Source: Kiloniellaceae bacterium (lineage in GTDB: Bacteria; Pseudomonadota; Alphaproteobacteria; Kiloniellales; J153). Taken from it: 64,000 nucleotides of DNA. The position numbers and the translations under genes were made by a program. The stretch covers positions 23,094 to 87,093 of the forward strand of contig JAJFGO010000098.1 in NCBI GenBank assembly GCA_021776095.1, written 5' to 3'. The notes beneath the pieces are model-generated. The model did no database searches, was not told the origin of the DNA, and worked only from the letters and a program-made list of their open reading frames with translations. This document shows, piece by piece, positions 7,894 through 64,000 of the stretch; position 1 is the stretch's first letter, and the number at the start of each line of letters is the position of its first letter.

Positions 7894-10124
7894 CCCTGGC
7901 GCGGCGCGATGCCTTTGATTTGCCGGAAGACTCCTGGCGCGGGTTTTCCGACCCGTCCGCCTATATCCGGGTCCGGGCCGATGGCACGGCGGAGCTCGAC
8001 CTGGTGGTCGAAAACCTGCATTGCCCCGGTTGCATTCCGAAAATCGAAGGCGCGGTGAAGCGCCTGCCCGGCGTGCTGCACGCCCGGGTCAATCTGAGCA
8101 CAAAGCGCCTACATCTGCACTGGCGGCCGGACGCCGTCGAGCCGTCGGCGTTGCTCGGCGCCGTCGCCGGGCAGGGATTCCGCCTCGCGCCCTACGATCC
8201 GGGCGCGCTCGCCAGCAGCGGCGCTGACGATACCAAGGCCCTGCTGCGTGCCCTGGCCGTGGCCGGCTTCGCGGCTGGCAATGTCATGCTGCTATCGGTC
8301 TCGGTCTGGAGCGGTCTGGTTTCCGACATGGGGCCGGCGACCCGCGACCTGTTTCATTGGGTCTCGGCGCTGATCGCTTTGCCGGCGGTCGCCTTTGCCG
8401 GGCAGCCGTTTTTCCGCTCCGCCCTGACCGCCTTGCGCGGGCACCGGCTGAACATGGACGTGCCGATCTCGCTTGCCGTCATCCTGGCCTCGGGCATGAG
8501 CTTGGTCGAAACCCTGGCCAGCGGCGATTACGTCTATTTCGACGCCGCGGTGATGTTGCTGTTTTTCCTGTTGATCGGCCGTTACCTGGACCTGCGTACG
8601 CGCGGACAGGCCCGCTCGGCGGCTGAGAACTTGATGCTCCTGCGGGCCCAGGGGGCCAGCGTCCTGACCGCCGACGGCGAAAGGCGCGCGCTGCCCATTG
8701 CGGAAATCGGCCCCGGCATGCGGGTTCTGGTGGCGGCGGGCGAGCGGGTGCCGGTCGACGGCCGGATTGCCCGGGGCCGCTCAGACCTTGATACCAGCCT
8801 GGTGACCGGGGAAAGCGTGCCCCGCGCTGCCGCGCCTGGCACGGAGATTTTTGCCGGAACGCTCAATTTAACGAGCCTCTTGGAGGTCGAAGTTACGGCA
8901 GTAGGCGAGGGTACCCTGCTGGCCGAGATTGTCCGTCTCATGGAAGCGGCTGAGCAGTGCCGCGCGCGCTACGTCCGCTTGGCCGACCGCATGGCCCGAA
9001 TCTATGCCCCGGCGGTCCATATCCTGGCCGCGGTCAGCTTTCTGGGCTGGCTCGCCTTTGGCGGTTTGGGATGGCAGGAGGCCTTGCTGATCGCGGTGGC
9101 GGTCTTGATCGTCACCTGTCCCTGCGCCCTCGGTCTGGCGGTTCCGGCGGTTCAGGTCGCCGCCGTTGGCCGCTTGCTGCGCGGCGGCGTATTGGTCAAA
9201 TCCGCCGACGGCCTGGAGCGCCTGGCCCAGGTCGATACGGTTATCTTCGACAAGACCGGGACCTTGACCCAGGGCTGGCCCGAGCCGACCAACCTCACTG
9301 AGATCGCGGTGGCGGACCAGCGCCTGGCGGCGAGTATGGCGGCTGCCAGCCGCCATCCCCTGTCCCGTGCCCTGTGTCGGACCGTGGGCCCGGTTGGGAT
9401 TCCTGAGACTGAGGTCCGTGAAGAACCGGGCCTGGGCTTGGCAATGATCTTGGATGGGCGGGAGGTTCGCTTAGGCAATCGGGAATGGTGCGGCGTTCCC
9501 ACGTCACAGAGCAGCGCCGTCGAGAGCGAGCTTTGGCTGGCGGTGCCGGGCCGGGCACCGGTGCGCTTCGCGTTCCGGGATGCGCCGCGCGCCGATGCCG
9601 CCCGCACAGTGGCCTGGCTGAAGGATCGTGGCCTGGCGGTCGAGTTATTGTCCGGCGACCGGGAACCGGCGGCACGGGAAATCGCGCGGGCCCTGGGTAT
9701 CGACCGCTGGGCTGGCGAACGCCGGCCGGCGGACAAGATCGCCCGGCTGGAAGTCCTGGCCGCCGACGGCCACAAGGTCCTGATGGTCGGGGATGGCCTG
9801 AACGACGCGCCGGCCCTGGCCGCGGCCTTCGCGTCCGCCTCGCCGGCCGAGGCGGCGGATATCAGCCAGACCGCCGCCGACTTTGTGATCCAGGGCGATG
9901 GTCTTTCGCCCCTGGCCGAAGCGATGCGGGTCGGTGTCGCTTCGCGCCGGCTGATCCTGCAGAACTTCGCCCTGGCACTGGGCTATAACGCCATCGCCGT
10001 GCCCCTGGCAATGGCTGGCTTGGTGACCCCCTTGATCGCCGCTCTGGCCATGTCGGCGTCCTCGATCGCGGTCACCCTCAATGCCTTGCGCCTGAGCCTG
10101 GCCCGCCGGGAGGCGCGACTATGA
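7881..10124 (+). CDS. ccoI: Copper-translocating P1B-type ATPase CcoI/FixI
   Basis: 747 aa. N-terminal metal-binding CPGC, TM motif CPC (VTCPCALG), phosphorylation site DKTGTLT, hinge GDGLNDAPAL. Confidence 0.93.
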   Translation: MAEVTLARRDAFDLPEDSWRGFSDPSAYIRVRADGTAELDLVVENLHCPGCIPKIEGAVKRLPGVLHARVNLSTKRLHLHWRPDAVEPSALLGAVAGQGFRLAPYDPGALASSGADDTKALLRALAVAGFAAGNVMLLSVSVWSGLVSDMGPATRDLFHWVSALIALPAVAFAGQPFFRSALTALRGHRLNMDVPISLAVILASGMSLVETLASGDYVYFDAAVMLLFFLLIGRYLDLRTRGQARSAAENLMLLRAQGASVLTADGERRALPIAEIGPGMRVLVAAGERVPVDGRIARGRSDLDTSLVTGESVPRAAAPGTEIFAGTLNLTSLLEVEVTAVGEGTLLAEIVRLMEAAEQCRARYVRLADRMARIYAPAVHILAAVSFLGWLAFGGLGWQEALLIAVAVLIVTCPCALGLAVPAVQVAAVGRLLRGGVLVKSADGLERLAQVDTVIFDKTGTLTQGWPEPTNLTEIAVADQRLAASMAAASRHPLSRALCRTVGPVGIPETEVREEPGLGLAMILDGREVRLGNREWCGVPTSQSSAVESELWLAVPGRAPVRFAFRDAPRADAARTVAWLKDRGLAVELLSGDREPAAREIARALGIDRWAGERRPADKIARLEVLAADGHKVLMVGDGLNDAPALAAAFASASPAEAADISQTAADFVIQGDGLSPLAEAMRVGVASRRLILQNFALALGYNAIAVPLAMAGLVTPLIAALAMSASSIAVTLNALRLSLARREARL

Positions 10125-55255: not shown

Positions 55256-55963
55256 ATGGCGCCGATGCGTATTCATGTCGTCAATCCAAATTCGACCAGT
55301 TCCATGACTGACAAGATTGGCGCCTGCGCGCGCTCCATCGCCAGTCCGGGGACCGAGATCGTTGCGACCAATCCGGGCTCGGGGCCGGCCAGCATCGAAG
55401 GCCAATACGATGAAGCCATGTCGCTCGCCGGGCTCTTGGCGGAAGTCGAAACGGGAGAGCGGGCCGGCGCCGACGGCTTCGTTGTGGCGTGTTTCGACGA
55501 CGTGGGGCTCGGTGCGTGCCGTGAAATTGCCAGTGGACCTGTGCTGGGGATTTGCGAGGCCGCCATGCACGCCGCCAGCATGATCGCCACCGGATTTTCT
55601 GTTGTGACGACGCTGGAGCGATCGGTGCCGATCGTCCAGGATCTAGCGTTGCGTTATGGCATGGAACGGCGATGCCGGCGGGTGCGCGCCGCCGATATTC
55701 CGGTCTTGGCGCTCGAGGAGCCGGGCAGCAACGCGCGCCAGAAGGTCTTGGAAGAAATCAAACGCGCGGTTCGCGAGGACCGCTGCGACGCCGTGATTCT
55801 AGGCTGCGCCGGCATGGCCGACTTGACCGCTTGGCTGACGAAGGAGACCGGCGTGCCGGTCATCGATGGTGTCGCCGTGGCGGTCAAGATGGTCGAGGCC
55901 CTAATCGGCGCCGGCCTCTCTACCAGCAAGGTCGGCGCCTACGCCCGGCCTCTGGTGAAATGA
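55256..55963 (+). CDS. Asp/Glu/hydantoin racemase-family enzyme (allantoin/hydantoin racemase-like)
   Basis: 235 aa. The two catalytic-Cys motifs are VVACFDD and ILGCAGM. AGGAG lies upstream. Confidence 0.87.
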   Translation: MAPMRIHVVNPNSTSSMTDKIGACARSIASPGTEIVATNPGSGPASIEGQYDEAMSLAGLLAEVETGERAGADGFVVACFDDVGLGACREIASGPVLGICEAAMHAASMIATGFSVVTTLERSVPIVQDLALRYGMERRCRRVRAADIPVLALEEPGSNARQKVLEEIKRAVREDRCDAVILGCAGMADLTAWLTKETGVPVIDGVAVAVKMVEALIGAGLSTSKVGAYARPLVK

Positions 55964-55973
55964 GGGCAGGCTC

Positions 55974-56891
55974 GTGACCGACCGGCCTTATCCACGCGAC
56001 ATGACCGGCTACGGCGCCCGGCCGCCGGACCCGCATTGGCCGGGTGGGGCGCGGATCGCCGTCCAGATCGTGCTCAATTACGAGGAAGGCGGCGAGAACT
56101 GCATCTTGCATGGCGATCCCGCGTCGGAGGCTTTTCTGTCCGAGACCGTCGGCGCCCAGCCCGTGCCGGGTGCGCGTAACATGAGCATGGAATCGATCTA
56201 CGAATTCGGCAGCCGGGCCGGCTTCTGGCGCCTCCACCGCCTGCTCGGCGAGCGCGGCATCCCGGTCACGGTGTTCGGCGTCGCCATGGCTTTGGAGCGC
56301 AACCCGGAGGCGGTCGCATCCATGCTGGAGGCCGAGTGGGAGATCGCCAGCCACGGCTATCGTTGGATCGACTACCAATTCATGAGTGAGGCTGAGGAAC
56401 GGCGGCACATCGAAACCGCGATTGAGATACACACCCGGGTCACTGGGGCCCGGCCGTTGGGCTGGTACACCGGGCGGGTCAGCCCGAACACCCGGCGGCT
56501 GGTTCAAGAGACAGGCGGTTTCCTCTACGACGCGGACAGCTACGCCGATGACTTGCCCTATTGGGTAGACGGGGCCAAGGGGCCGCACTTGGTCGTCCCC
56601 TATACATTGGACGCCAATGACATGCGCTTCGCCACCGCCCAGGGCTTCAATTCGGGCGATCAGTTTTTCGCCTATCTGCGCGACAGCTTCGATCAACTTT
56701 ATGCCGAGGGCGCGCGGTGGCCTAAGATGATGTCGATCGGGTTGCACTGCCGCCTGGCCGGCCGGCCGGGACGGGCCGCCGCCCTGGCGCGGTTCCTGGA
56801 TCACGTACAGAACCACGAGCGGGTCTGGCTGTGCCGCCGGATCGATATCGCCCAGCACTGGCACGCCCATCACCCGAGCGCGCCGTCGTGA
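55974..56891 (+). CDS. puuE: PuuE-type allantoinase (polysaccharide deacetylase fold)
   Basis: 305 aa. YPRDMTGYGARPPDPHWPGGARIAVQIVLNYEEGGENCILHGD closely matches my recollection of the PuuE N-terminus. Confidence 0.87.
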   Translation: MTDRPYPRDMTGYGARPPDPHWPGGARIAVQIVLNYEEGGENCILHGDPASEAFLSETVGAQPVPGARNMSMESIYEFGSRAGFWRLHRLLGERGIPVTVFGVAMALERNPEAVASMLEAEWEIASHGYRWIDYQFMSEAEERRHIETAIEIHTRVTGARPLGWYTGRVSPNTRRLVQETGGFLYDADSYADDLPYWVDGAKGPHLVVPYTLDANDMRFATAQGFNSGDQFFAYLRDSFDQLYAEGARWPKMMSIGLHCRLAGRPGRAAALARFLDHVQNHERVWLCRRIDIAQHWHAHHPSAPS

Positions 56892-58165
56892 TGGATAGCG
56901 GCGCCCTTACCTTGGGCCCCAATCTGGGTCCAGAGATCATGTCACAAATCGACCTTCTGGCGGCCTGCAGCGAATCTGCCGAATGCCTGACCCGGTCCTA
57001 TCTGACCGACCAACATGCCCGGGCCAACGACTTGGTATTAGGCTGGATGGGTAAGGCCGGAATGGACTGCGGCGTCGATCCGGTCGGCAACGCGCTTGGC
57101 CGTTATGAGGGCCGGCGCCCGGGCCTGCCGGCCTTGATCCTGGGTTCGCACCTCGACACGGTGCGCGACGCCGGGAAGTACGACGGCATGCTGGGCGTGG
57201 TCACGGCGATTGCCTGCGTCAAGGCACTCAAGGATGCTGGCGAGCGTCTGGATTTTGCCATTGAGGTGGTCGGCTTCGGCGATGAGGAAGGGGTTCGGTT
57301 CCAGTCCACGCTGCTGGGCAGCCGGGCCCTGGCCGGCACCTTCGACATGAGTCTGCTGGATAAGCGCGACGTTGATGGAATGACCATGGCGCAGGCCATG
57401 CGCGACTTCGGCCTCGACCCGGCGCGGGTGCCCCAAGCGGCCAAGCGGCCCGACCAGGTTCTTGCCTATGTCGAGTTGCATATCGAGCAGGGTCCGGTCC
57501 TTGAGGCCGAGAGCTTGCCGCTTGGTGCCGTCACCTCGATCGCCGGGGCGACCCGACTTGAGGTCGCGATTTCCGGGACCAGCGGCCACGCCGGGACCGT
57601 GCCTATGGTGGGCCGCAAGGACGCGCTCGCGGCGGCGGCCGAGGCAGTGATGGCGGTCGAGACCATTTGCTGCGGGGCGGACGAGTTGGTCGGCACGGTC
57701 GGACGGCTCGAGGTTGCGCCCGGCGCGGTCAATGTCATCCCCGGCGAAGCCCGCTTCAGCGTCGACATTCGCGCCGCCGAGGATATGCCTCGGCATCGGG
57801 CGGTTAATGCGGTCATCGGCGAGATTCGGGAGATTTGCGCCCGCCGTGGCCTGACCCTCGAGTTGGAACGGAATCACGAAAGCCCGAGCTGTCCCTGCGC
57901 GCCTTGGTTGATCGAACAAATCGCCCGCGCGATTGCGGCCGAGGGGATTGCGCTTCGCCGTCTGCCGAGCGGCGCCGGGCACGACGCCATGGCGATGGCC
58001 GCCTTGTGTGACGTCGGCATGCTGTTCGTGCGCTGCGCCGGCGGTATCAGCCATAATCCGGCCGAGGCGATTACAATGGAAGACGCGGCCAGCGGCGCGC
58101 GCGCCCTATTGCGCTTTATTCGGGATTTTGAGCCCGAGGCGCGGCGCGCCGTCGCGGCCCTATAG
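56891..58165 (+). CDS. allC: Allantoate amidohydrolase / N-carbamoyl-L-amino-acid hydrolase family M20 enzyme (AllC-like)
   Basis: GSHLDTVRDAGKYDG, VELHIEQGPVLE, GHAGTVPM, SGAGHDAM and ISHNPAE motifs align with E. coli AllC as I recall it. The ATG overlaps the puuE stop. Confidence 0.84.
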   Translation: MDSGALTLGPNLGPEIMSQIDLLAACSESAECLTRSYLTDQHARANDLVLGWMGKAGMDCGVDPVGNALGRYEGRRPGLPALILGSHLDTVRDAGKYDGMLGVVTAIACVKALKDAGERLDFAIEVVGFGDEEGVRFQSTLLGSRALAGTFDMSLLDKRDVDGMTMAQAMRDFGLDPARVPQAAKRPDQVLAYVELHIEQGPVLEAESLPLGAVTSIAGATRLEVAISGTSGHAGTVPMVGRKDALAAAAEAVMAVETICCGADELVGTVGRLEVAPGAVNVIPGEARFSVDIRAAEDMPRHRAVNAVIGEIREICARRGLTLELERNHESPSCPCAPWLIEQIARAIAAEGIALRRLPSGAGHDAMAMAALCDVGMLFVRCAGGISHNPAEAITMEDAASGARALLRFIRDFEPEARRAVAAL

Positions 58166-58171
58166 AATACC

Positions 58172-59479
58172 GTGTCTATGTTGTTGAAAGGGAAACCCCG
58201 CGTGCTCGAGACGTCTTTCACCGCCATAGGCCGCTACCTCGATAGCTGCCGCCGGGATCAGGCTGCCTTCCTGGCCGAGTTGGTTCGCACGCCGTCGGAC
58301 AATCCGCCGGGCGATTGCGTCGTGCACGCCGCCTGCGCCGCCGCTTTGCTCGAAGGACTCGGTTTTGCGGTCGAGCGCCATCCGGTGCCTGAGGCCGACT
58401 GTCGGGCCCACGGCATGATCGGCGCGACCAACTTGATCGTGCGCCGCCGTTTCGGTGCCGGCCCGACCGTGGCGCTCAATGCCCACGGCGACGTGGTCGC
58501 GCCGGGCGAGGGCTGGACCGGCAATCCCTATGGGGCCGAGGTGCGCGACGGCATGATGTACGGGCGCGGCGTGGCCGTGTCCAAGTCCGACTTCGCGACC
58601 TATGCCTATGCCTTGCGGGCGCTGGAGGAATCCGGCGCCCCCCTGTCCGGCACTGTGGAGTTGCATTTCACTTACGATGAAGAGGTCGGCGGCGCGATCG
58701 GCCCCAAACGGATACTCGATAGCGGTCTGAGCAAGCCGGACCTGGCCATTTCGGCCGGGTTTTCCTATGCCGTGGTCAGCGCCCATAACGGCTGTCTGCA
58801 CCTGGAGGTCGAGGTCGGCGGCCGTTCGGCCCATGCCGCGCAACCCGCCACCGGTCACGATGCGCTGGAGGCTGCCACCGGCATTCTTTCCGCGCTTTAT
58901 GCCGAGCGGTCTGGCTATGGCGCGACAACGTCCCGGATCGCGGGCATCGCCTCGCCGACCTTGGTCGTTGGCTTGATCGAGGGCGGAATCAACACCAACG
59001 TGGTGCCTGATCGCACGACCTTCCGCCTGGACCGCCGCTTGATTCCCGAGGAGCAGCCGGCGGAGGTCGAGGACCGTTTGCGCCACGTCATCGCTGCCGC
59101 CGCGGCCGACCATCCGGGCATCAAGGTTGAGGTGCGGCGGATCATGCTGGCCGAGTCCCTGAAACCGCTACCTGGCGTGGAACGCTTACTTGGGCCCTTG
59201 ACCCGGCAGGCGAGCCGGGTGTTCGGCATGCCTGTCGAGGCCACGGGCAGTCCGCTTTATACGGACGGTCGCCACTACGCCGCGGCCGGTGTTCCCACCG
59301 TGCTTTACGGAGCCGGGCCGCGCACAATCTTGGAGGCGAACGCCCACGCCGCCGACGAGCGCCTTGTCTTGGACGATTTGCGGCGGGCGACCGAGACCGT
59401 GGCGGCGGCCCTTGCCGAAATTTTGGCGCCGGGCGAACCTGACGAGCTTCGCAGACACAACGAAACAGGACCGAGATGA
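58172..59479 (+). CDS. ArgE/DapE/ACY1-type M20 metallohydrolase (substrate unknown)
   Basis: 435 aa with LNAHGDVVAPGEGW, GRGVAVSKSD and HFTYDEEVGG metal-ligand motifs. It is clearly a different M20 subfamily from the preceding gene. Confidence 0.85.
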   Translation: MSMLLKGKPRVLETSFTAIGRYLDSCRRDQAAFLAELVRTPSDNPPGDCVVHAACAAALLEGLGFAVERHPVPEADCRAHGMIGATNLIVRRRFGAGPTVALNAHGDVVAPGEGWTGNPYGAEVRDGMMYGRGVAVSKSDFATYAYALRALEESGAPLSGTVELHFTYDEEVGGAIGPKRILDSGLSKPDLAISAGFSYAVVSAHNGCLHLEVEVGGRSAHAAQPATGHDALEAATGILSALYAERSGYGATTSRIAGIASPTLVVGLIEGGINTNVVPDRTTFRLDRRLIPEEQPAEVEDRLRHVIAAAAADHPGIKVEVRRIMLAESLKPLPGVERLLGPLTRQASRVFGMPVEATGSPLYTDGRHYAAAGVPTVLYGAGPRTILEANAHAADERLVLDDLRRATETVAAALAEILAPGEPDELRRHNETGPR

Positions 59480-60732
59480 GCAGCCAGAAGCCGTCGCCCG
59501 GAGGCCTATTCGAAGATCTCGACCCCGCGCCCCGATTACTCATGGGGCCGGGTCCCGTGGACGTCTATCCACGTGTCTTGCGGGCGATGTCGACCCCGAT
59601 GCTGGGGCAGTTCGATCCGCAATTCACCGACTACATGAATCAGGTCATGGCGCTGTACCGCCAGGTCTATCGGACTGAGAACCACTGGACCTTGCTGGTT
59701 AACGGCACCGCGCGGGCCGGGATCGAGGCCTGCATGGTGTCGCTCATTTCTCCGGGCGACCGGGTTCTGGTACCGATCTTCGGGCGCTTCGGCCACCTAC
59801 TGCACGAGATCGCCTCGCGCTGCGGCGCGGAGGTCGTGACTATTGAAGCCGAGTGGGGCCGCGTGTTCGAGAGCGATGCCCTGCGCGATGCCATGCGCCG
59901 TCACCGGCCCAAACTCGTCGCCATGGTGCACGGCGATACCTCGACCACAATGGTCCAGCCCTTGGACGAAATTGGCGCGATCTGCCGCGAGTTCGATGCG
60001 CTGCTCTATGTGGACGCGACCGCGACCCTTGGCGGTATGCCGGTCGAAGTCGACGCCTGGAACCTCGACATAGTTTCATCCGGACTGCAGAAGTGCATGT
60101 CGGGGCCGCCAGGCTCCTCGCCCGTCACCTTCAACGAACGGGCCACCGCCGTGGTCGCGCGCCGCCGGCACGTCGAGGCCGGCATTCGCTCGGAAGGTAT
60201 GCTCGATGCGGCCGGGCCGCGCATCCAATCGAACTACCTCGATTTGCCCATGCTGATGGATTACTGGAGCCCGCAACGCCTGAACCACCACACCGAATCG
60301 ACCTCCATGCTCTATGCGGCGCGCGAATGCGCGCGGGTTGTGCTGGGCGAGGGACTTGAGAAGGGCTTCGTCCGCCATCGGACCGCGAGCAACGCCTTGC
60401 GCGCCGGGCTCGAGGCCATGGGCTTGAGCCTCTATGGCGACCCCGCGCACCGCATGACCAACGTGACCGGGGTTCATATCCCGGATGGTGTCGAGGCCGA
60501 TAAGCTCCGCGGCGAATTGCTCAATGACTTCGGTATCGAAATCGGCACCTCCTTCGGTCCCCTGCACGGCAAGATCTGGCGGATCGGCACCATGGGCTAC
60601 GTCTGCCGCAAGGCGAATATCCTGCGCTGCCTGACCGCCATGGAAGCGGTCTTGCGACGCAACGGATACGCATGCGAAGCGGGCGCGGCGGTCGATTCCG
60701 CCTACGCCGTCTACGATGACGCGACGGCCTGA
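59476..60732 (+). CDS. Class V aminotransferase (AGXT/PucG-like; candidate (S)-ureidoglycine--glyoxylate aminotransferase)
   Basis: 418 aa. Motifs LLMGPGPVDVYPRVLRAM, NGTARAGIEA and DIVSSGLQKC (PLP Lys). ATGA overlap with the upstream stop. Confidence 0.87.
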   Translation: MSSQKPSPGGLFEDLDPAPRLLMGPGPVDVYPRVLRAMSTPMLGQFDPQFTDYMNQVMALYRQVYRTENHWTLLVNGTARAGIEACMVSLISPGDRVLVPIFGRFGHLLHEIASRCGAEVVTIEAEWGRVFESDALRDAMRRHRPKLVAMVHGDTSTTMVQPLDEIGAICREFDALLYVDATATLGGMPVEVDAWNLDIVSSGLQKCMSGPPGSSPVTFNERATAVVARRRHVEAGIRSEGMLDAAGPRIQSNYLDLPMLMDYWSPQRLNHHTESTSMLYAARECARVVLGEGLEKGFVRHRTASNALRAGLEAMGLSLYGDPAHRMTNVTGVHIPDGVEADKLRGELLNDFGIEIGTSFGPLHGKIWRIGTMGYVCRKANILRCLTAMEAVLRRNGYACEAGAAVDSAYAVYDDATA

Positions 60733-60741
60733 GCCTAAGAA

Positions 60742-60936
60742 ATGGATGGATCCACCATGAGCGATGACATCGGTAAAACCCTTCTGAACACGCCTCCGAA
60801 AGTCGTGAACCTCGGGCTCGAGAGCTTCGCGTTGGAGCTTTCCCAGCAAGGCGTGGCGGTTGTCCATGTGGATTGGACGCCGCCGGCCGGCGGCGATCCA
60901 GCGCTCGCCGATCTATTGTCCAAACTGGGCGCCTAG
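60742..60936 (+). CDS. 64-aa ORF resembling the C-terminal tail module of long FdrA proteins
   Basis: GC-rich third positions, and it begins 10 nt after the aminotransferase stop. ...TLLNTPPKVVNLGLESFALELSQQGVAVVHVDWTPPAGGDPALADLLSKL resembles my recollection of the last ~50 aa of E. coli FdrA. Unverified. Confidence 0.5.
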   Translation: MDGSTMSDDIGKTLLNTPPKVVNLGLESFALELSQQGVAVVHVDWTPPAGGDPALADLLSKLGA

Positions 60937-60956
60937 GCACAGGCCCGGCCGCGCCC

Positions 60957-62207
60957 ATGGATCTCATCGAACGCGCCAACAAAGAAGCCGTCCGCCGCAT
61001 GCTGGCGGGCGATCCCGTTCTGGTTGACGTGATCCCTGCCGAACAGGCGATTCCCACCTTGGGGGAGCGCATGATCCTGCATGCAGGACCGCCGATCGAC
61101 TGGGCGCGGATGTGCGGTCCCATGCGCGGCGCGGTAACCGGCGTTGCCTGCTTCGAAGGCTGGACCGCGAATCTGGAAGCGGCGGCGGAGCAAGCTGCCG
61201 CCGGCGCCTTCGCCCTGCATCCCAACCACCATTTCGATGCGGTGGGCCCCATGACCGGCATAACCACGCGCAGCCAGCCGGTGATGGTGGTCGAGAACCG
61301 AGCCTTCGGCAATCGCGCCTACTGCACCATCAACGAAGGCCTAGGAAAGGTCATGCGCTTCGGCGGCAACGACGAGGAGGTCCTCAATCGCCTGCGTTGG
61401 TTGCGTGATGATTTCGGCCCGGCCATGGGGGCGGCCTTGCGCGAGATGGGCGGTATCCCGCTGAAAAGCCTGGTCGCGCGGGGTCTGACCATGGGCGACG
61501 AGATGCACCAGCGCAACGTTGCCTGCTCGGGCCTGACCCTGCGCCACCTCGCCCCCGCCTTGGCGCGTGTTACACAGGATCGCGACGCCTTGGCGCGGGC
61601 CCTGGCCTTTATCGGCGGCAACGATCAGTTCTTCCTCAATATCGCCATGGCCCTGGGCAAGGCGATCATGGATCCGGTGCGCGGCATCGAAGGCTCTAGT
61701 GTCGTTACCGCCATGGCGCGCAATGGAACCGACTTCGGCATCCGGGTCAGCGGGACCGGAGATACCTGGTTCACCGCCCCTGTGGAAATGCCTGAGGGCT
61801 TGTACTTTCCTGGATTCAGCGCCGCGGATGCCAATCCGGACATGGGCGATTCGACCATTGTCGAGACCATTGGATTGGGCGGCTTTGCCATGGGTGCGGC
61901 ACCGGCGGTTGCCGGATTTGTCGGTGCTGGTGCTGCCTCGGAGGCCGGCAATTTTACCCGGACCATGGCCGAGATCACCCTCGGCGAAAATCCGGAGTGG
62001 ACCATCCCGGCCCTTGATTACTTCGGCGTGCCCACCGGCATAGATATCCGTCTGGTGGTCGAAACCGGACTGGCCCCGACCATCAACACCGGCATTGCCC
62101 ACAAGGAACCGGGTATCGGCCAGGTCGGGGCGGGGGTTGTGCGCGCGCCGCTCGCCTGTTTTCGCGAGGCCTTGTTGGCCTTTGCCGAGACCTTGGGGGT
62201 GTTATGA
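60957..62207 (+). CDS. DUF1116 protein (YlbE/AllG-like)
   Basis: 416 aa from MDLIERANKEAV. Blocks ILHAGPPIDW, NRAYCTINEGLGKVMRFGG, GDEMHQRNVA, NPDMGDSTIVET and TGIAHKEPGIGQVGAGVVRAPL match YlbE as I recall it. Confidence 0.85.
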   Translation: MDLIERANKEAVRRMLAGDPVLVDVIPAEQAIPTLGERMILHAGPPIDWARMCGPMRGAVTGVACFEGWTANLEAAAEQAAAGAFALHPNHHFDAVGPMTGITTRSQPVMVVENRAFGNRAYCTINEGLGKVMRFGGNDEEVLNRLRWLRDDFGPAMGAALREMGGIPLKSLVARGLTMGDEMHQRNVACSGLTLRHLAPALARVTQDRDALARALAFIGGNDQFFLNIAMALGKAIMDPVRGIEGSSVVTAMARNGTDFGIRVSGTGDTWFTAPVEMPEGLYFPGFSAADANPDMGDSTIVETIGLGGFAMGAAPAVAGFVGAGAASEAGNFTRTMAEITLGENPEWTIPALDYFGVPTGIDIRLVVETGLAPTINTGIAHKEPGIGQVGAGVVRAPLACFREALLAFAETLGVL

Positions 62208-63733
62208 GCGGCCTGGTGATCAATGAGGTGCGCCGGGGCTTCTATTTGGATTCCGTTGCGCTGATGCGCCTGTCGCGCGGTATCGCGGAGCGGGACGGAG
62301 TCGAGGAGGCGGCCTTGATGATGGGAACCCCGGCCAACAAGCGGATCATGGACGATGCCGGGCTGCTGACGGCAACGGGGCAGGCGGCGGAAGGCGGCGA
62401 CTTGGTGATCGGTATTCGGGCCGACTCCCATGCCCGGGCGAAGGAGGTCCTTCAAGAGGCGCTCAGCGAGTTGGACAAGCCCGCCGGCCATGGTGGGGCG
62501 GCGGTGCAGTGGCGGCCGCGCACGACCCGCGCTGCCCTGAAGCAGGCGCCGGACTCGAACCTGGCGCTTATTTCCGTGCCCGGCGATTTCGCCGCTGCCG
62601 AGGCGCGTAAGGCGCTACGTCGGGGCCTGCATGTGATGATGTTCAGCGACAATGTCAGCCTGGCCGCTGAGGTCGCCTTGAAACAAGAGGCCAAGACCCT
62701 GGGCCGCCTGGTCATGGGGCCGGATTGCGGTACCGCGATTATCAACGGTGTGCCGCTTGCCTTCGCCAACGCGGTGCCACGGGGGTCCGTCGGACTGATC
62801 GGCGCTTCGGGTACCGGTCTGCAGGAAGTTAGCTGCCTGATCGCTCAAGGCGGCGGCGGACTCTCCCATGCGATTGGGGTCGGTGGCCGTGACCTCAAGG
62901 AAGAGGTGGGCGGCATGACCACCTTGATGGCCCTCGACGCACTCGATGCCGATCCGGGCACCAAGCACATCGTTTTGATCTCCAAGCCGCCCGCGGCCGG
63001 GGTCGCGGCGCGCCTTCTCGAACGCATCGGGGCCAGCGGGAAGAGCTTCACGATCTGCTTCATTGGCGCCTCGGACCTGACGCTGCCAGCGAATGCGCGT
63101 TCGGTCGACACCCTCAAGGCGGCGGCCGAAGATGCCCTGGGCGGCGTCGCGCTTGGCGTCGGTTTCGATCCGGTGATGATGGCGGCGCGTGCGCCGGCGG
63201 GACGCGGCGCAGTGTGGGGACTCTTCACCGGCGGCACCTTGTGCGCCGAGGCACAGGTGATCTTTCAGGCGGCAGGTCAAGTCGTGGCGTCGAACGCGCC
63301 GATCCCCGGTGCGAGTCCGCTCGATCCAGGCGGAAGCGGCCACCAATTAATCGACCTTGGCGCCGACGAATTTACGCGCGGCCGGCCCCATCCCATGATC
63401 GATCCGACTGTGCGCGACGACGCCCTGGTAGAGGCACTCGCGTCGTCGCGGGTCGGCGTAATCCTCTTGGACGTCGTCGTCGGTTTTGGCGCGCACGCGG
63501 ACCCGGCCGGTCATCTGGCCCCTGTCCTTACGGCCCATCGGCGCGCTGATGGCCCGGTGGTGATTGCCTCGGTCACCGGGACCGACGCGGACCCGCAGGG
63601 CCGTACCGCGCAGGCCGCCAAGCTGGAAGCGGCCGGGGTTATGGTCGCGCCCACCAATGCCGATGCAGCCACCTTGGCCTTAGCGTGCCTGGGCTGTGTT
63701 CCGGGTCGCGATCCAACCAATAGATCCGCGTGA
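62204..63733 (+). CDS. fdrA: FdrA-family protein (succinyl-CoA-synthetase-alpha-like fold; AllF-like)
   Basis: 509 aa. Blocks FYLDSVALMRLS, MMGTPANK, MMFSDNV, MGPDCGTAIINGVPLAFAN, GASGTGLQE, RPHPMIDP and LLDVVVGFGAHADPA. It lacks the ~50-aa tail present in the 555-aa E. coli protein. Confidence 0.85.
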   Translation: MSGLVINEVRRGFYLDSVALMRLSRGIAERDGVEEAALMMGTPANKRIMDDAGLLTATGQAAEGGDLVIGIRADSHARAKEVLQEALSELDKPAGHGGAAVQWRPRTTRAALKQAPDSNLALISVPGDFAAAEARKALRRGLHVMMFSDNVSLAAEVALKQEAKTLGRLVMGPDCGTAIINGVPLAFANAVPRGSVGLIGASGTGLQEVSCLIAQGGGGLSHAIGVGGRDLKEEVGGMTTLMALDALDADPGTKHIVLISKPPAAGVAARLLERIGASGKSFTICFIGASDLTLPANARSVDTLKAAAEDALGGVALGVGFDPVMMAARAPAGRGAVWGLFTGGTLCAEAQVIFQAAGQVVASNAPIPGASPLDPGGSGHQLIDLGADEFTRGRPHPMIDPTVRDDALVEALASSRVGVILLDVVVGFGAHADPAGHLAPVLTAHRRADGPVVIASVTGTDADPQGRTAQAAKLEAAGVMVAPTNADAATLALACLGCVPGRDPTNRSA

Positions 63734-64000
63734 ACGCGGTCCCCCAAATACCCGGCCGTCTGCTGGTTGCGATCGGCGGCAATGCGACCCATCCCGAGGA
63801 CATCGAGGGCACCTCCCAGGAGCAAAAGACCATCGCCGCCAGAACCGCGCAGGCCCTGCTGCCCCTGGCCATGCTCGACAACGAACTGATCGTCACCCAC
63901 GGCAACGGCCCGGTGGTTGGCAAGATCCTCATGCGTCAGGCCCTGACCCGGGACCGGATCGTGCCCATGCCGCTCGATATATGCGTCGCGCACAGCCAAG
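63730..64000 (+). CDS. arcC: Carbamate kinase (5' part; continues beyond the window)
   Basis: Not in the ORF track because it has no stop. The GTG at 63730 overlaps the fdrA stop (GTGA). Translation is VNAVPQIPGRLLVAIGGNATHPED...LIVTHGNGPVVGKILMRQ, with the GGNA and THGNGP motifs of carbamate kinases. Confidence 0.8.
   Translation, partial: MNAVPQIPGRLLVAIGGNATHPEDIEGTSQEQKTIAARTAQALLPLAMLDNELIVTHGNGPVVGKILMRQALTRDRIVPMPLDICVAHSQ

Follow-up and report, generated by a model that had tools for sequence, protein, structure and literature searches.

The small gene and its operon

The stretch analysed here, referred to as the window, comprises 64,000 nucleotides of DNA from a Kiloniellaceae bacterium (assembly GCA_021776095.1, contig JAJFGO010000098.1, positions 23,094 to 87,093 of the forward strand) and ends in an operon in which a small gene for a protein of 59 amino acids (aa) precedes the genes for an AllG-type and an FdrA/AllF-type subunit of oxamic transcarbamylase. 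The small gene encodes, as a separate protein, the module that closes the FdrA polypeptide of Escherichia coli, and its product would probably serve as a stand-alone subunit at the interface between AllF and AllG.

Specifically, a class-V aminotransferase gene (59476..60732, + strand; PF00266, E 2e-23) lies immediately 5' of the small module gene (60757..60936, + strand; 64 aa if read from the alternative upstream ATG at 60742). The next gene is allG (DUF1116; 60957..62207, + strand), whose 416-aa product is without an N-terminal module, matches PF06545 (AllG) at E 2e-91 and is 53% identical to YlbE and 45% identical to the YahG core; its start is the ATG at 60957, the mechanically listed TTG at 60873 being the wrong one. 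It is followed by the gene for an FdrA/AllF-type subunit (62204..63733, + strand) in a short form of 509 aa with CoA_binding and Ligase_CoA domains and without the C-terminal module, and by a carbamate kinase gene (allK/ybcF-like; 63730..64000, + strand) of which the window has the 5' part; it begins with GTG and continues past the window end. The first 89 codons of the kinase fragment match YbcF (E 4e-8) and YahI (E 1e-7) in tblastn and give a weak AA_kinase match, and a full-length AA_kinase gene occupies the matching place in the closest relative with a long contig (locus L085). Since gaps of 24 nt (aminotransferase to small gene) and 20 nt (small gene to allG) are followed by two 4-nt overlaps (ATGA at allG/fdrA, GTGA at fdrA/kinase), the operon looks translationally coupled.

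Homology to the FdrA tail and the YahG head

An earlier note on this DNA had claimed that the FdrA-like protein ends at 509 aa and that E. coli FdrA has about 50 additional residues, and both points are correct. The 62204-63733 open reading frame (ORF) ends in ...LALACLGCVPGRDPTNRSA followed by the stop codon and aligns only to residues 6-493 of E. coli FdrA, a protein of 555 aa with the tail ...VINIGLRSFALELQSASKPVVHYQWSPVAGGNKKLARLLERLQ, so that the roughly 50 C-terminal residues of the latter are absent. The note further placed the tail pattern in a 64-aa ORF (60742-60936) in front of the DUF1116 gene. The homology stands, whereas the start does not, because the conserved ATG at 60757 yields 59 aa.

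For comparison, the E. coli K-12 operons fdrA-ylbE-ylbF-ybcF and yahE-yahF-yahG-yahI were used. In BLASTP, the search that the note had proposed, the small ORF matches the termini of both proteins significantly: FdrA residues 513-554 with 23/42 identical positions (55%, E 2e-13), and YahG residues 1-53 with 32% identity over 53 residues (E 3e-10). Moreover, a phmmer search against the whole Protein Data Bank (PDB) retrieves 3dmy_A at E 7e-8. The division is best seen in the NCBIfam model NF004760, whose 555 positions are distributed over two window genes: the 509-aa protein scores 483 bits (cut-off 433) and covers positions 6-491 only, and the small ORF covers positions 505-554 (E 1e-11). The N-terminal extension of similar size that the note ascribed to YahG (472 aa) is likewise present, since YahG carries 57 residues more than YlbE and the window AllG, and this extension is the part homologous to the small ORF. 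Its partner YahF (515 aa) is tailless, like the window FdrA.

No Pfam family matches the small ORF, no Pfam model extends over the FdrA tail or the YahG head, and the module has neither a Pfam nor an NCBIfam model of its own. At the other end of the protein, the precomputed annotation of the identical FdrA protein (window 62204-63733; L003 3746-5275) lists a newer Pfam family, PF27530 (HMA_AllF_N), on the N-terminus, where the local Pfam copy is silent; Pfam now names the AllF head and still leaves the tail without a family.

An alignment of 75 sequences gives the consensus LL-x5-V[IV]N[IV]GL-x2-F-...-W-x-PPAGG[DN]-x2-L-x2-LL-x2-L. In the module, G, F, W and P positions are invariant and N, L, A and G positions exceed 90% across Proteobacteria, Bacillota, Chloroflexota, Spirochaetota and Fusobacteriota; the window module, VVNLGLESF...DWTPPAGGD...LLSKL, matches the family motif V-x-N-x-G-L-x-x-F ... 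W-x-P-P-A-G-G-[DN] ... L-L-x-x-L, whose first part can be written more narrowly as V-[IV]-N-[IVL]-G-L-x-x-F. Mean pairwise identity is 0.45 for the module, 0.46 for the FdrA core and 0.24 for AllH. A likeness to NGAGLA...GGGA motifs raised the candidate of a fragment of the succinyl-CoA synthetase beta subunit or another CoA-ligase domain, which is not supported: hhalign returns probabilities of 0.1% for SucC and 0.2% for the FdrA core, and the module profile search of the PDB finds no succinyl-CoA synthetase chain. The comparison of the module with the AllG core by hhalign is not significant either.

The small gene is real and under selection

The small ORF is a real gene under selection. A search of 5.8 billion proteins finds free-standing homologues in 109 clusters, 43-79 aa long and mostly of 59 aa, none of them with a Pfam domain. 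An independent assembly contains an identical locus with a 59-aa gene call, and the same 59-aa gene is called in L085. Conservation singles out the second ATG (60757) as the start; it follows a purine-rich, Shine-Dalgarno-like stretch that relatives keep, and in one of them the upstream ATG is missing. Among the 45 free-standing copies in the fetched loci, the median ratio of nonsynonymous to synonymous substitution rates (dN/dS) is 0.29, indicating purifying selection, and variability by codon position 1/2/3 is 0.27/0.19/0.55, the third position being about twice as variable as the first and second. Because the free form is under purifying selection, the function of the module appears to be independent of covalent attachment.

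It could be argued that the ORF is nonfunctional, either because an operon rearrangement left a decaying piece of an FdrA tail behind or because a frameshift in the assembly has split a module-AllG fusion. The ORF is indeed short and without a Pfam family, annotations in RefSeq and of metagenome-assembled genomes (MAGs) label it 'hypothetical protein', and true fusions are present in close relatives. Nevertheless, the length of 59 aa is kept in more than 100 clusters, the 45 free copies bear the mark of purifying selection, the independent assembly has the identical sequence, and a genuine TAG stop, the 20-nt spacer and a change of frame separate the small gene from allG, which together make such a remnant or artefact extremely improbable, and both the pseudogene and the assembly artefact were rejected on the identical assembly, the 109 clusters and the dN/dS. 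The labels themselves vary among relatives, from the RefSeq 'hypothetical protein' of the Microvirga massiliensis orthologue to the 'FdrA protein' that JGI assigns to some copies. Programmed frameshifting that joins the module to AllG was also considered and rejected: in the window, the frame of allG stays open over about 60 codons before its start, but most relatives have it closed 2-6 codons upstream, so that such a mechanism is not conserved.

Free and fused forms of the module

The distribution of the module was surveyed in 80 loci around allG relatives, with one genome per GTDB species and with hidden Markov models (HMMs) for the cores of FdrA and AllG, for AllH, for the kinase and for the module itself; the architecture counts rest on 78 GTDB loci together with both E. 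coli operons, the window and the identical assembly. The module is free in 46 loci (in the order module-allG-fdrA in 32 and fdrA-module-allG in 4), is fused to the N-terminus of AllG in 18, with both gene orders represented, and is fused to the C-terminus of FdrA in 4. In 8 further loci, FdrA, module and AllG form one uninterrupted reading frame of about 1000 aa, as in the isolate Propionivibrio dicarboxylicus DSM 5885, where a 1017-aa FdrA-module-AllG ORF is followed by allH. The fused-versus-split survey that the earlier note had called for thus bears out its Rosetta-stone idea of a module fused to FdrA, fused to DUF1116 or free, and adds the single chains that join all three. The orthologous loci keep the small ORF.

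The fused forms also recur in a HMMER search of 1.84 billion representatives with a natural fusion as the query, which retrieves 4225 relatives: the best 109 with an intact AllG N-terminus (representatives at 50% identity) divide into 61 with AllG alone, 29 with module-AllG and 15 to 18 with FdrA-module-AllG. Fusion and fission recur within one clade, since the AllG part of the true module-AllG fusions P0119, P0166, P0190 and P0195 is 84-86% identical to the window AllG.

Two features of these arrangements are asymmetric with respect to the partners. Where the gene order is allG-fdrA, the module still lies 5' of allG in 37/37 classified loci. In the natural fusions, the linker from the FdrA core to the module is variable, with a median of 15 and up to 44 residues, and is rich in P, A, S and K, while module and AllG core are separated by 1 residue in the median (-4 to 7).

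Individual loci depart from the common arrangements. A free module is inverted (minus strand) downstream of the kinase in L054; in a Dehalococcoidia locus (L057, 5017-5214) it directly follows fdrA, 2.8 kb from allG; the pair of fdrA and module-allG is present in tandem duplicate in Clostridiaceae BRH_c20a (L064, 3221-9300); and an additional copy of allG lies a few kb off the operon in each of two Casimicrobiaceae loci (L036, L040).

Co-occurrence with fdrA

The presence of the module follows that of fdrA. Module and fdrA occur together in 64 loci, and 8 loci have neither; another 7 carry the module but no fdrA (3 of them on truncated contigs), and 1 carries fdrA but no module (Fisher p = 2e-6; 3e-4 for the strict set). 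The 'solo' allG genes share about 70% identity with the window AllG, and within 8 kb of them there is no fdrA, module, allH or carbamate kinase. Because the module tracks fdrA and these solo allG genes are without it, the module is suggested to serve the FdrA-AllG partnership rather than the folding of AllG.

The solo group comprises L041, L046 (allG 7998-9251), L048 and L049, together with the short contigs L042, L044, L047 and L060. In L046, allG overlaps the stop of the upstream Amidohydro_3 gene, and a gene for a thiamine pyrophosphate-dependent enzyme comes after it on the opposite strand. AllG may have a second, FdrA-independent role.

The same co-occurrence can be read as a sign that the module belongs structurally to FdrA alone, for dimerisation or capping, and that its adjacency to allG is a legacy of an ancestral fdrA-module-allG order in which stop and start codons have drifted. 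The loci without fdrA that also lack the module agree with this, as does the free module beside fdrA in the Dehalococcoidia locus, and a crystal that contains FdrA alone, as a homodimer (PMC11326118), shows an ordered tail. A legacy of gene order is, however, hard to reconcile with the module staying 5' of allG in every classified locus of the allG-fdrA order, with at least 29 representative clusters in which the module is fused to AllG and FdrA is separate, or with a module-AllG junction that is nearly spacerless next to a long and variable FdrA-module linker. An exclusive attachment to FdrA is therefore considered unlikely.

Predicted role at the AllF-AllG interface

The reading of the module as a stand-alone AllF-AllG interface subunit is favoured by the co-occurrence with fdrA, the gene order, the asymmetry of the linkers and the selection on the free form, and by the published co-purification of the two large subunits: untagged AllG co-purifies with His-tagged AllF, and AllF and AllG both wash away when AllH alone is tagged (PMC11326118). 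The structural comparison adds the FdrA tail itself. The module profile finds 3dmy_A at E 4e-19, and 3DMY, which spans FdrA residues 82-555, is the sole structure found in the PDB. The AlphaFold2 model of the free module (helix-strand-helix-strand-loop-helix) has 3dmy_B and 3dmy_A as its top Foldseek matches over 43-50 columns with 50-53% identity, and its match to these coordinates means that FdrA crystallised by itself has an ordered tail.

Based on architecture, linker lengths, co-occurrence and the ordered 3DMY tail, the 59-aa protein is thus predicted, with somewhat better than even confidence, to bridge AllF and AllG. According to the proposed mechanism, it would be the fourth polypeptide of the oxamate carbamoyltransferase AllF-AllG-AllH, with its C-terminal end next to the AllG N-terminus and its body packed on FdrA, and would hold the two large subunits together non-covalently; the invariant W-x-P-P-A-G-G loop would possibly add to a shared site. 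The module is also predicted to be required for activity.

Several observations weigh against a bridging role. The model of the isolated module is only moderately confident (predicted local distance difference test, pLDDT, 71) and superposes on the 3DMY tail at a root-mean-square deviation (rmsd) of 7-8 A, a difference that leaves the real conformation of the module uncertain. The match between the DUF1116 structure 3CLQ (421 aa) and YahG begins at YahG residue 58, and as this chain was crystallised and solved without the module, AllG would not need it to fold. The AlphaFold2 model of the natural module-AllG fusion P0166 has a mean pLDDT of 53 and is uninformative on packing; it is unusable because the alignment held only homologues at least 78% identical. 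Mirror-tree partial correlations of 0.30 and 0.29 favour neither partner. Furthermore, a Geminicoccaceae MAG (L019, 7000-9245) has the order allG-fdrA-kinase-allH and a relaxed HMM search detects no module upstream of its allG, which makes it the sole module-less locus among the 65 that contain fdrA. Lastly, Hyphomicrobiaceae MAGs (L023, L024, L030, L043) have an aminotransferase, a free or fused module and allG, with fdrA absent within 3.6-8 kb downstream; either these genomes carry fdrA at another place, or the module can act on its own there.

The conservation of the module can also be given a different emphasis, since the W-x-P-P-A-G-G-[DN] loop and its helix might act mainly in catalysis or ligand binding, in a site for phosphate and carbamoyl phosphate (or oxalurate) at the FdrA-AllG junction. 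This possibility overlaps the interface reading and differs from it in emphasis alone. It would agree with the invariant and near-invariant residues of the module across five phyla and with a conservation of the module that equals that of the FdrA core and is far above that of AllH; besides, a function that outlasts the loss of the covalent link to either partner must be more than that of a mere covalent tether. Conversely, no similarity to a known phosphate-binding domain was detected, the PDB profile search giving 3DMY only, and the hhalign comparisons with E. coli SucC and with the FdrA and AllG cores are not significant. A mainly catalytic module is for these reasons rather doubtful.

The interface reading can be extended into a bolder proposal, which is advanced tentatively, with less confidence than the interface role itself. 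The module of about 50 residues would be an obligatory fourth component that forms the AllF-AllG interface and places the W-PPAGG loop in the active or phosphate site, and evolution would have attached it to either, both or neither of its neighbours. If this is true, the enzyme would be a four-polypeptide complex in many Alpha- and Gammaproteobacteria, with its smallest subunit annotated as a hypothetical protein.

The allantoin-degradation setting and the probable position of allH

The genes upstream of the operon point to its metabolic context. Allantoinase PuuE (55974-56891, + strand; TIGR03212, 545 bits) and allantoate amidohydrolase (ORF 56831-58165, + strand; NF006775, 566 bits) both score above their cut-offs, and an additional M20 hydrolase of the ArgE/DapE family (58172-59479) lies between the latter and the aminotransferase, where L085 has one M20 gene. 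The gene just 5' of PuuE (55256-55963) is of the Asp/Glu-racemase family, with PF01177 in the syntenic L085 and no significant NCBIfam match, and is possibly an allantoin racemase. The NCBIfam scan of the window also finds an ABC transporter upstream of the operon. The class-V aminotransferase scores under the equivalog cut-offs of all NCBIfam aminotransferases and is kept at the same place in L085, L086 and L023; from the gene content, it is a putative aminotransferase of the ureidoglycine type that would supply oxalurate. The predicted setting is allantoin catabolism that ends in oxalurate phosphorolysis, oxamate carbamoyltransferase being an enzyme of purine breakdown.

The third subunit of the enzyme, AllH (DUF2877, PF11392), is not found in the 64-kb window by tblastn or an iterated HMM, and the window covers 267 nt of the kinase gene before it ends. 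The earlier note had observed that no DUF2877 gene lies between these genes and the carbamate kinase; this is accurate for the window and probably does not reflect a biological absence, as AllH follows the kinase in relatives. In L085 (GCA_021776115.1), whose AllG is 90% identical to that of the window, the order is Aminotran_5, 59-aa gene, AllG, FdrA, AA_kinase, AllH (PF11392) and a gene of the gamma-glutamyltranspeptidase family, and AllH comes next after the kinase in 15/16 GTDB loci that have the allG-fdrA-kinase order and more than 1 kb beyond the kinase. Because the kinase runs off the end of the window and AllH follows it in these loci, the absence is most likely an effect of the window edge, and allH almost certainly sits just past the end, after the kinase.

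The gamma-glutamyltranspeptidase-family gene of L085 (12233-13258) lies directly 3' of allH and is probably also present just beyond the window end. We take its product to be a candidate oxamate amidohydrolase of the HpxW-like type, with which the pathway would run through to oxalate and ammonia.

Comparison with known systems

The genes for oxamic transcarbamylase, an orphan enzyme for 60 years, were assigned only in 2024, when Kim and Kim described AllFGH as an enzyme of three gene products, with AllK as carbamate kinase, and were unable to model the complex; the activity, the reversible conversion of oxalurate and phosphate to carbamoyl phosphate and oxamate, has been demonstrated for the enzyme of E. 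coli alone (PMC11326118). The PDB copy searched contains no AllFGH complex, and neither the tail module nor a structure of the complex is described in the literature found, that paper included. What is new here, as judged from homology and gene arrangement, is that the AllF polypeptide is split and that the piece appears as a mobile mini-subunit of a known enzyme system.

Fusion and fission of small domains are in general common, and the present case bears on the quaternary structure of a recently de-orphaned enzyme. An interchangeable module is genomic evidence for the physical partnership of AllF and AllG and indicates which ends of the two proteins would meet, while the natural single-chain FdrA-module-AllG enzymes are candidate targets for structure work. 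For annotation, hundreds of 59-aa 'hypothetical proteins' would be enzyme subunits, and 'short' FdrA proteins are not truncated.

The window operon and AllFGH/AllK share AllF-type and AllG-type subunits, an adjacent carbamate kinase and a location in an allantoin-degradation cluster. They differ in that the three products of AllFGH correspond to four here, the AllF polypeptide being divided, and in that oxalurate would be formed here by the aminotransferase route, as the gene content suggests, and not by AllD. The tail of E. coli FdrA/AllF (residues ~505-555, ordered in 3DMY) is the same module, with 55% identity over 42 residues and the same motif, and is encoded directly before allG. In E. 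coli, however, it is covalently joined through a short P/A/Q-rich linker within the order fdrA-allG-allH-allK, whereas the window has a free 59-aa protein, an fdrA gene 3' of allG and an allH gene that probably comes after the kinase. The head of E. coli YahG (residues 1-57), from the paralogous cluster yahEFGI, is again the same module, located just before the DUF1116 core and accompanied by a partner, YahF, that is tailless like the window FdrA; in YahG it is fused to DUF1116 with no spacer, and in the window it is separate. A parallel outside this pathway is PurS of formylglycinamidine ribonucleotide (FGAM) synthetase, a structural part of a multi-subunit enzyme, which some bacteria have as a free protein of about 80 aa and others as the N-terminal domain of the large PurL. 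PurS serves as an analogy only, being unrelated in sequence, fold and pathway, and it is known in two arrangements, compared with four for the FdrA-tail module.

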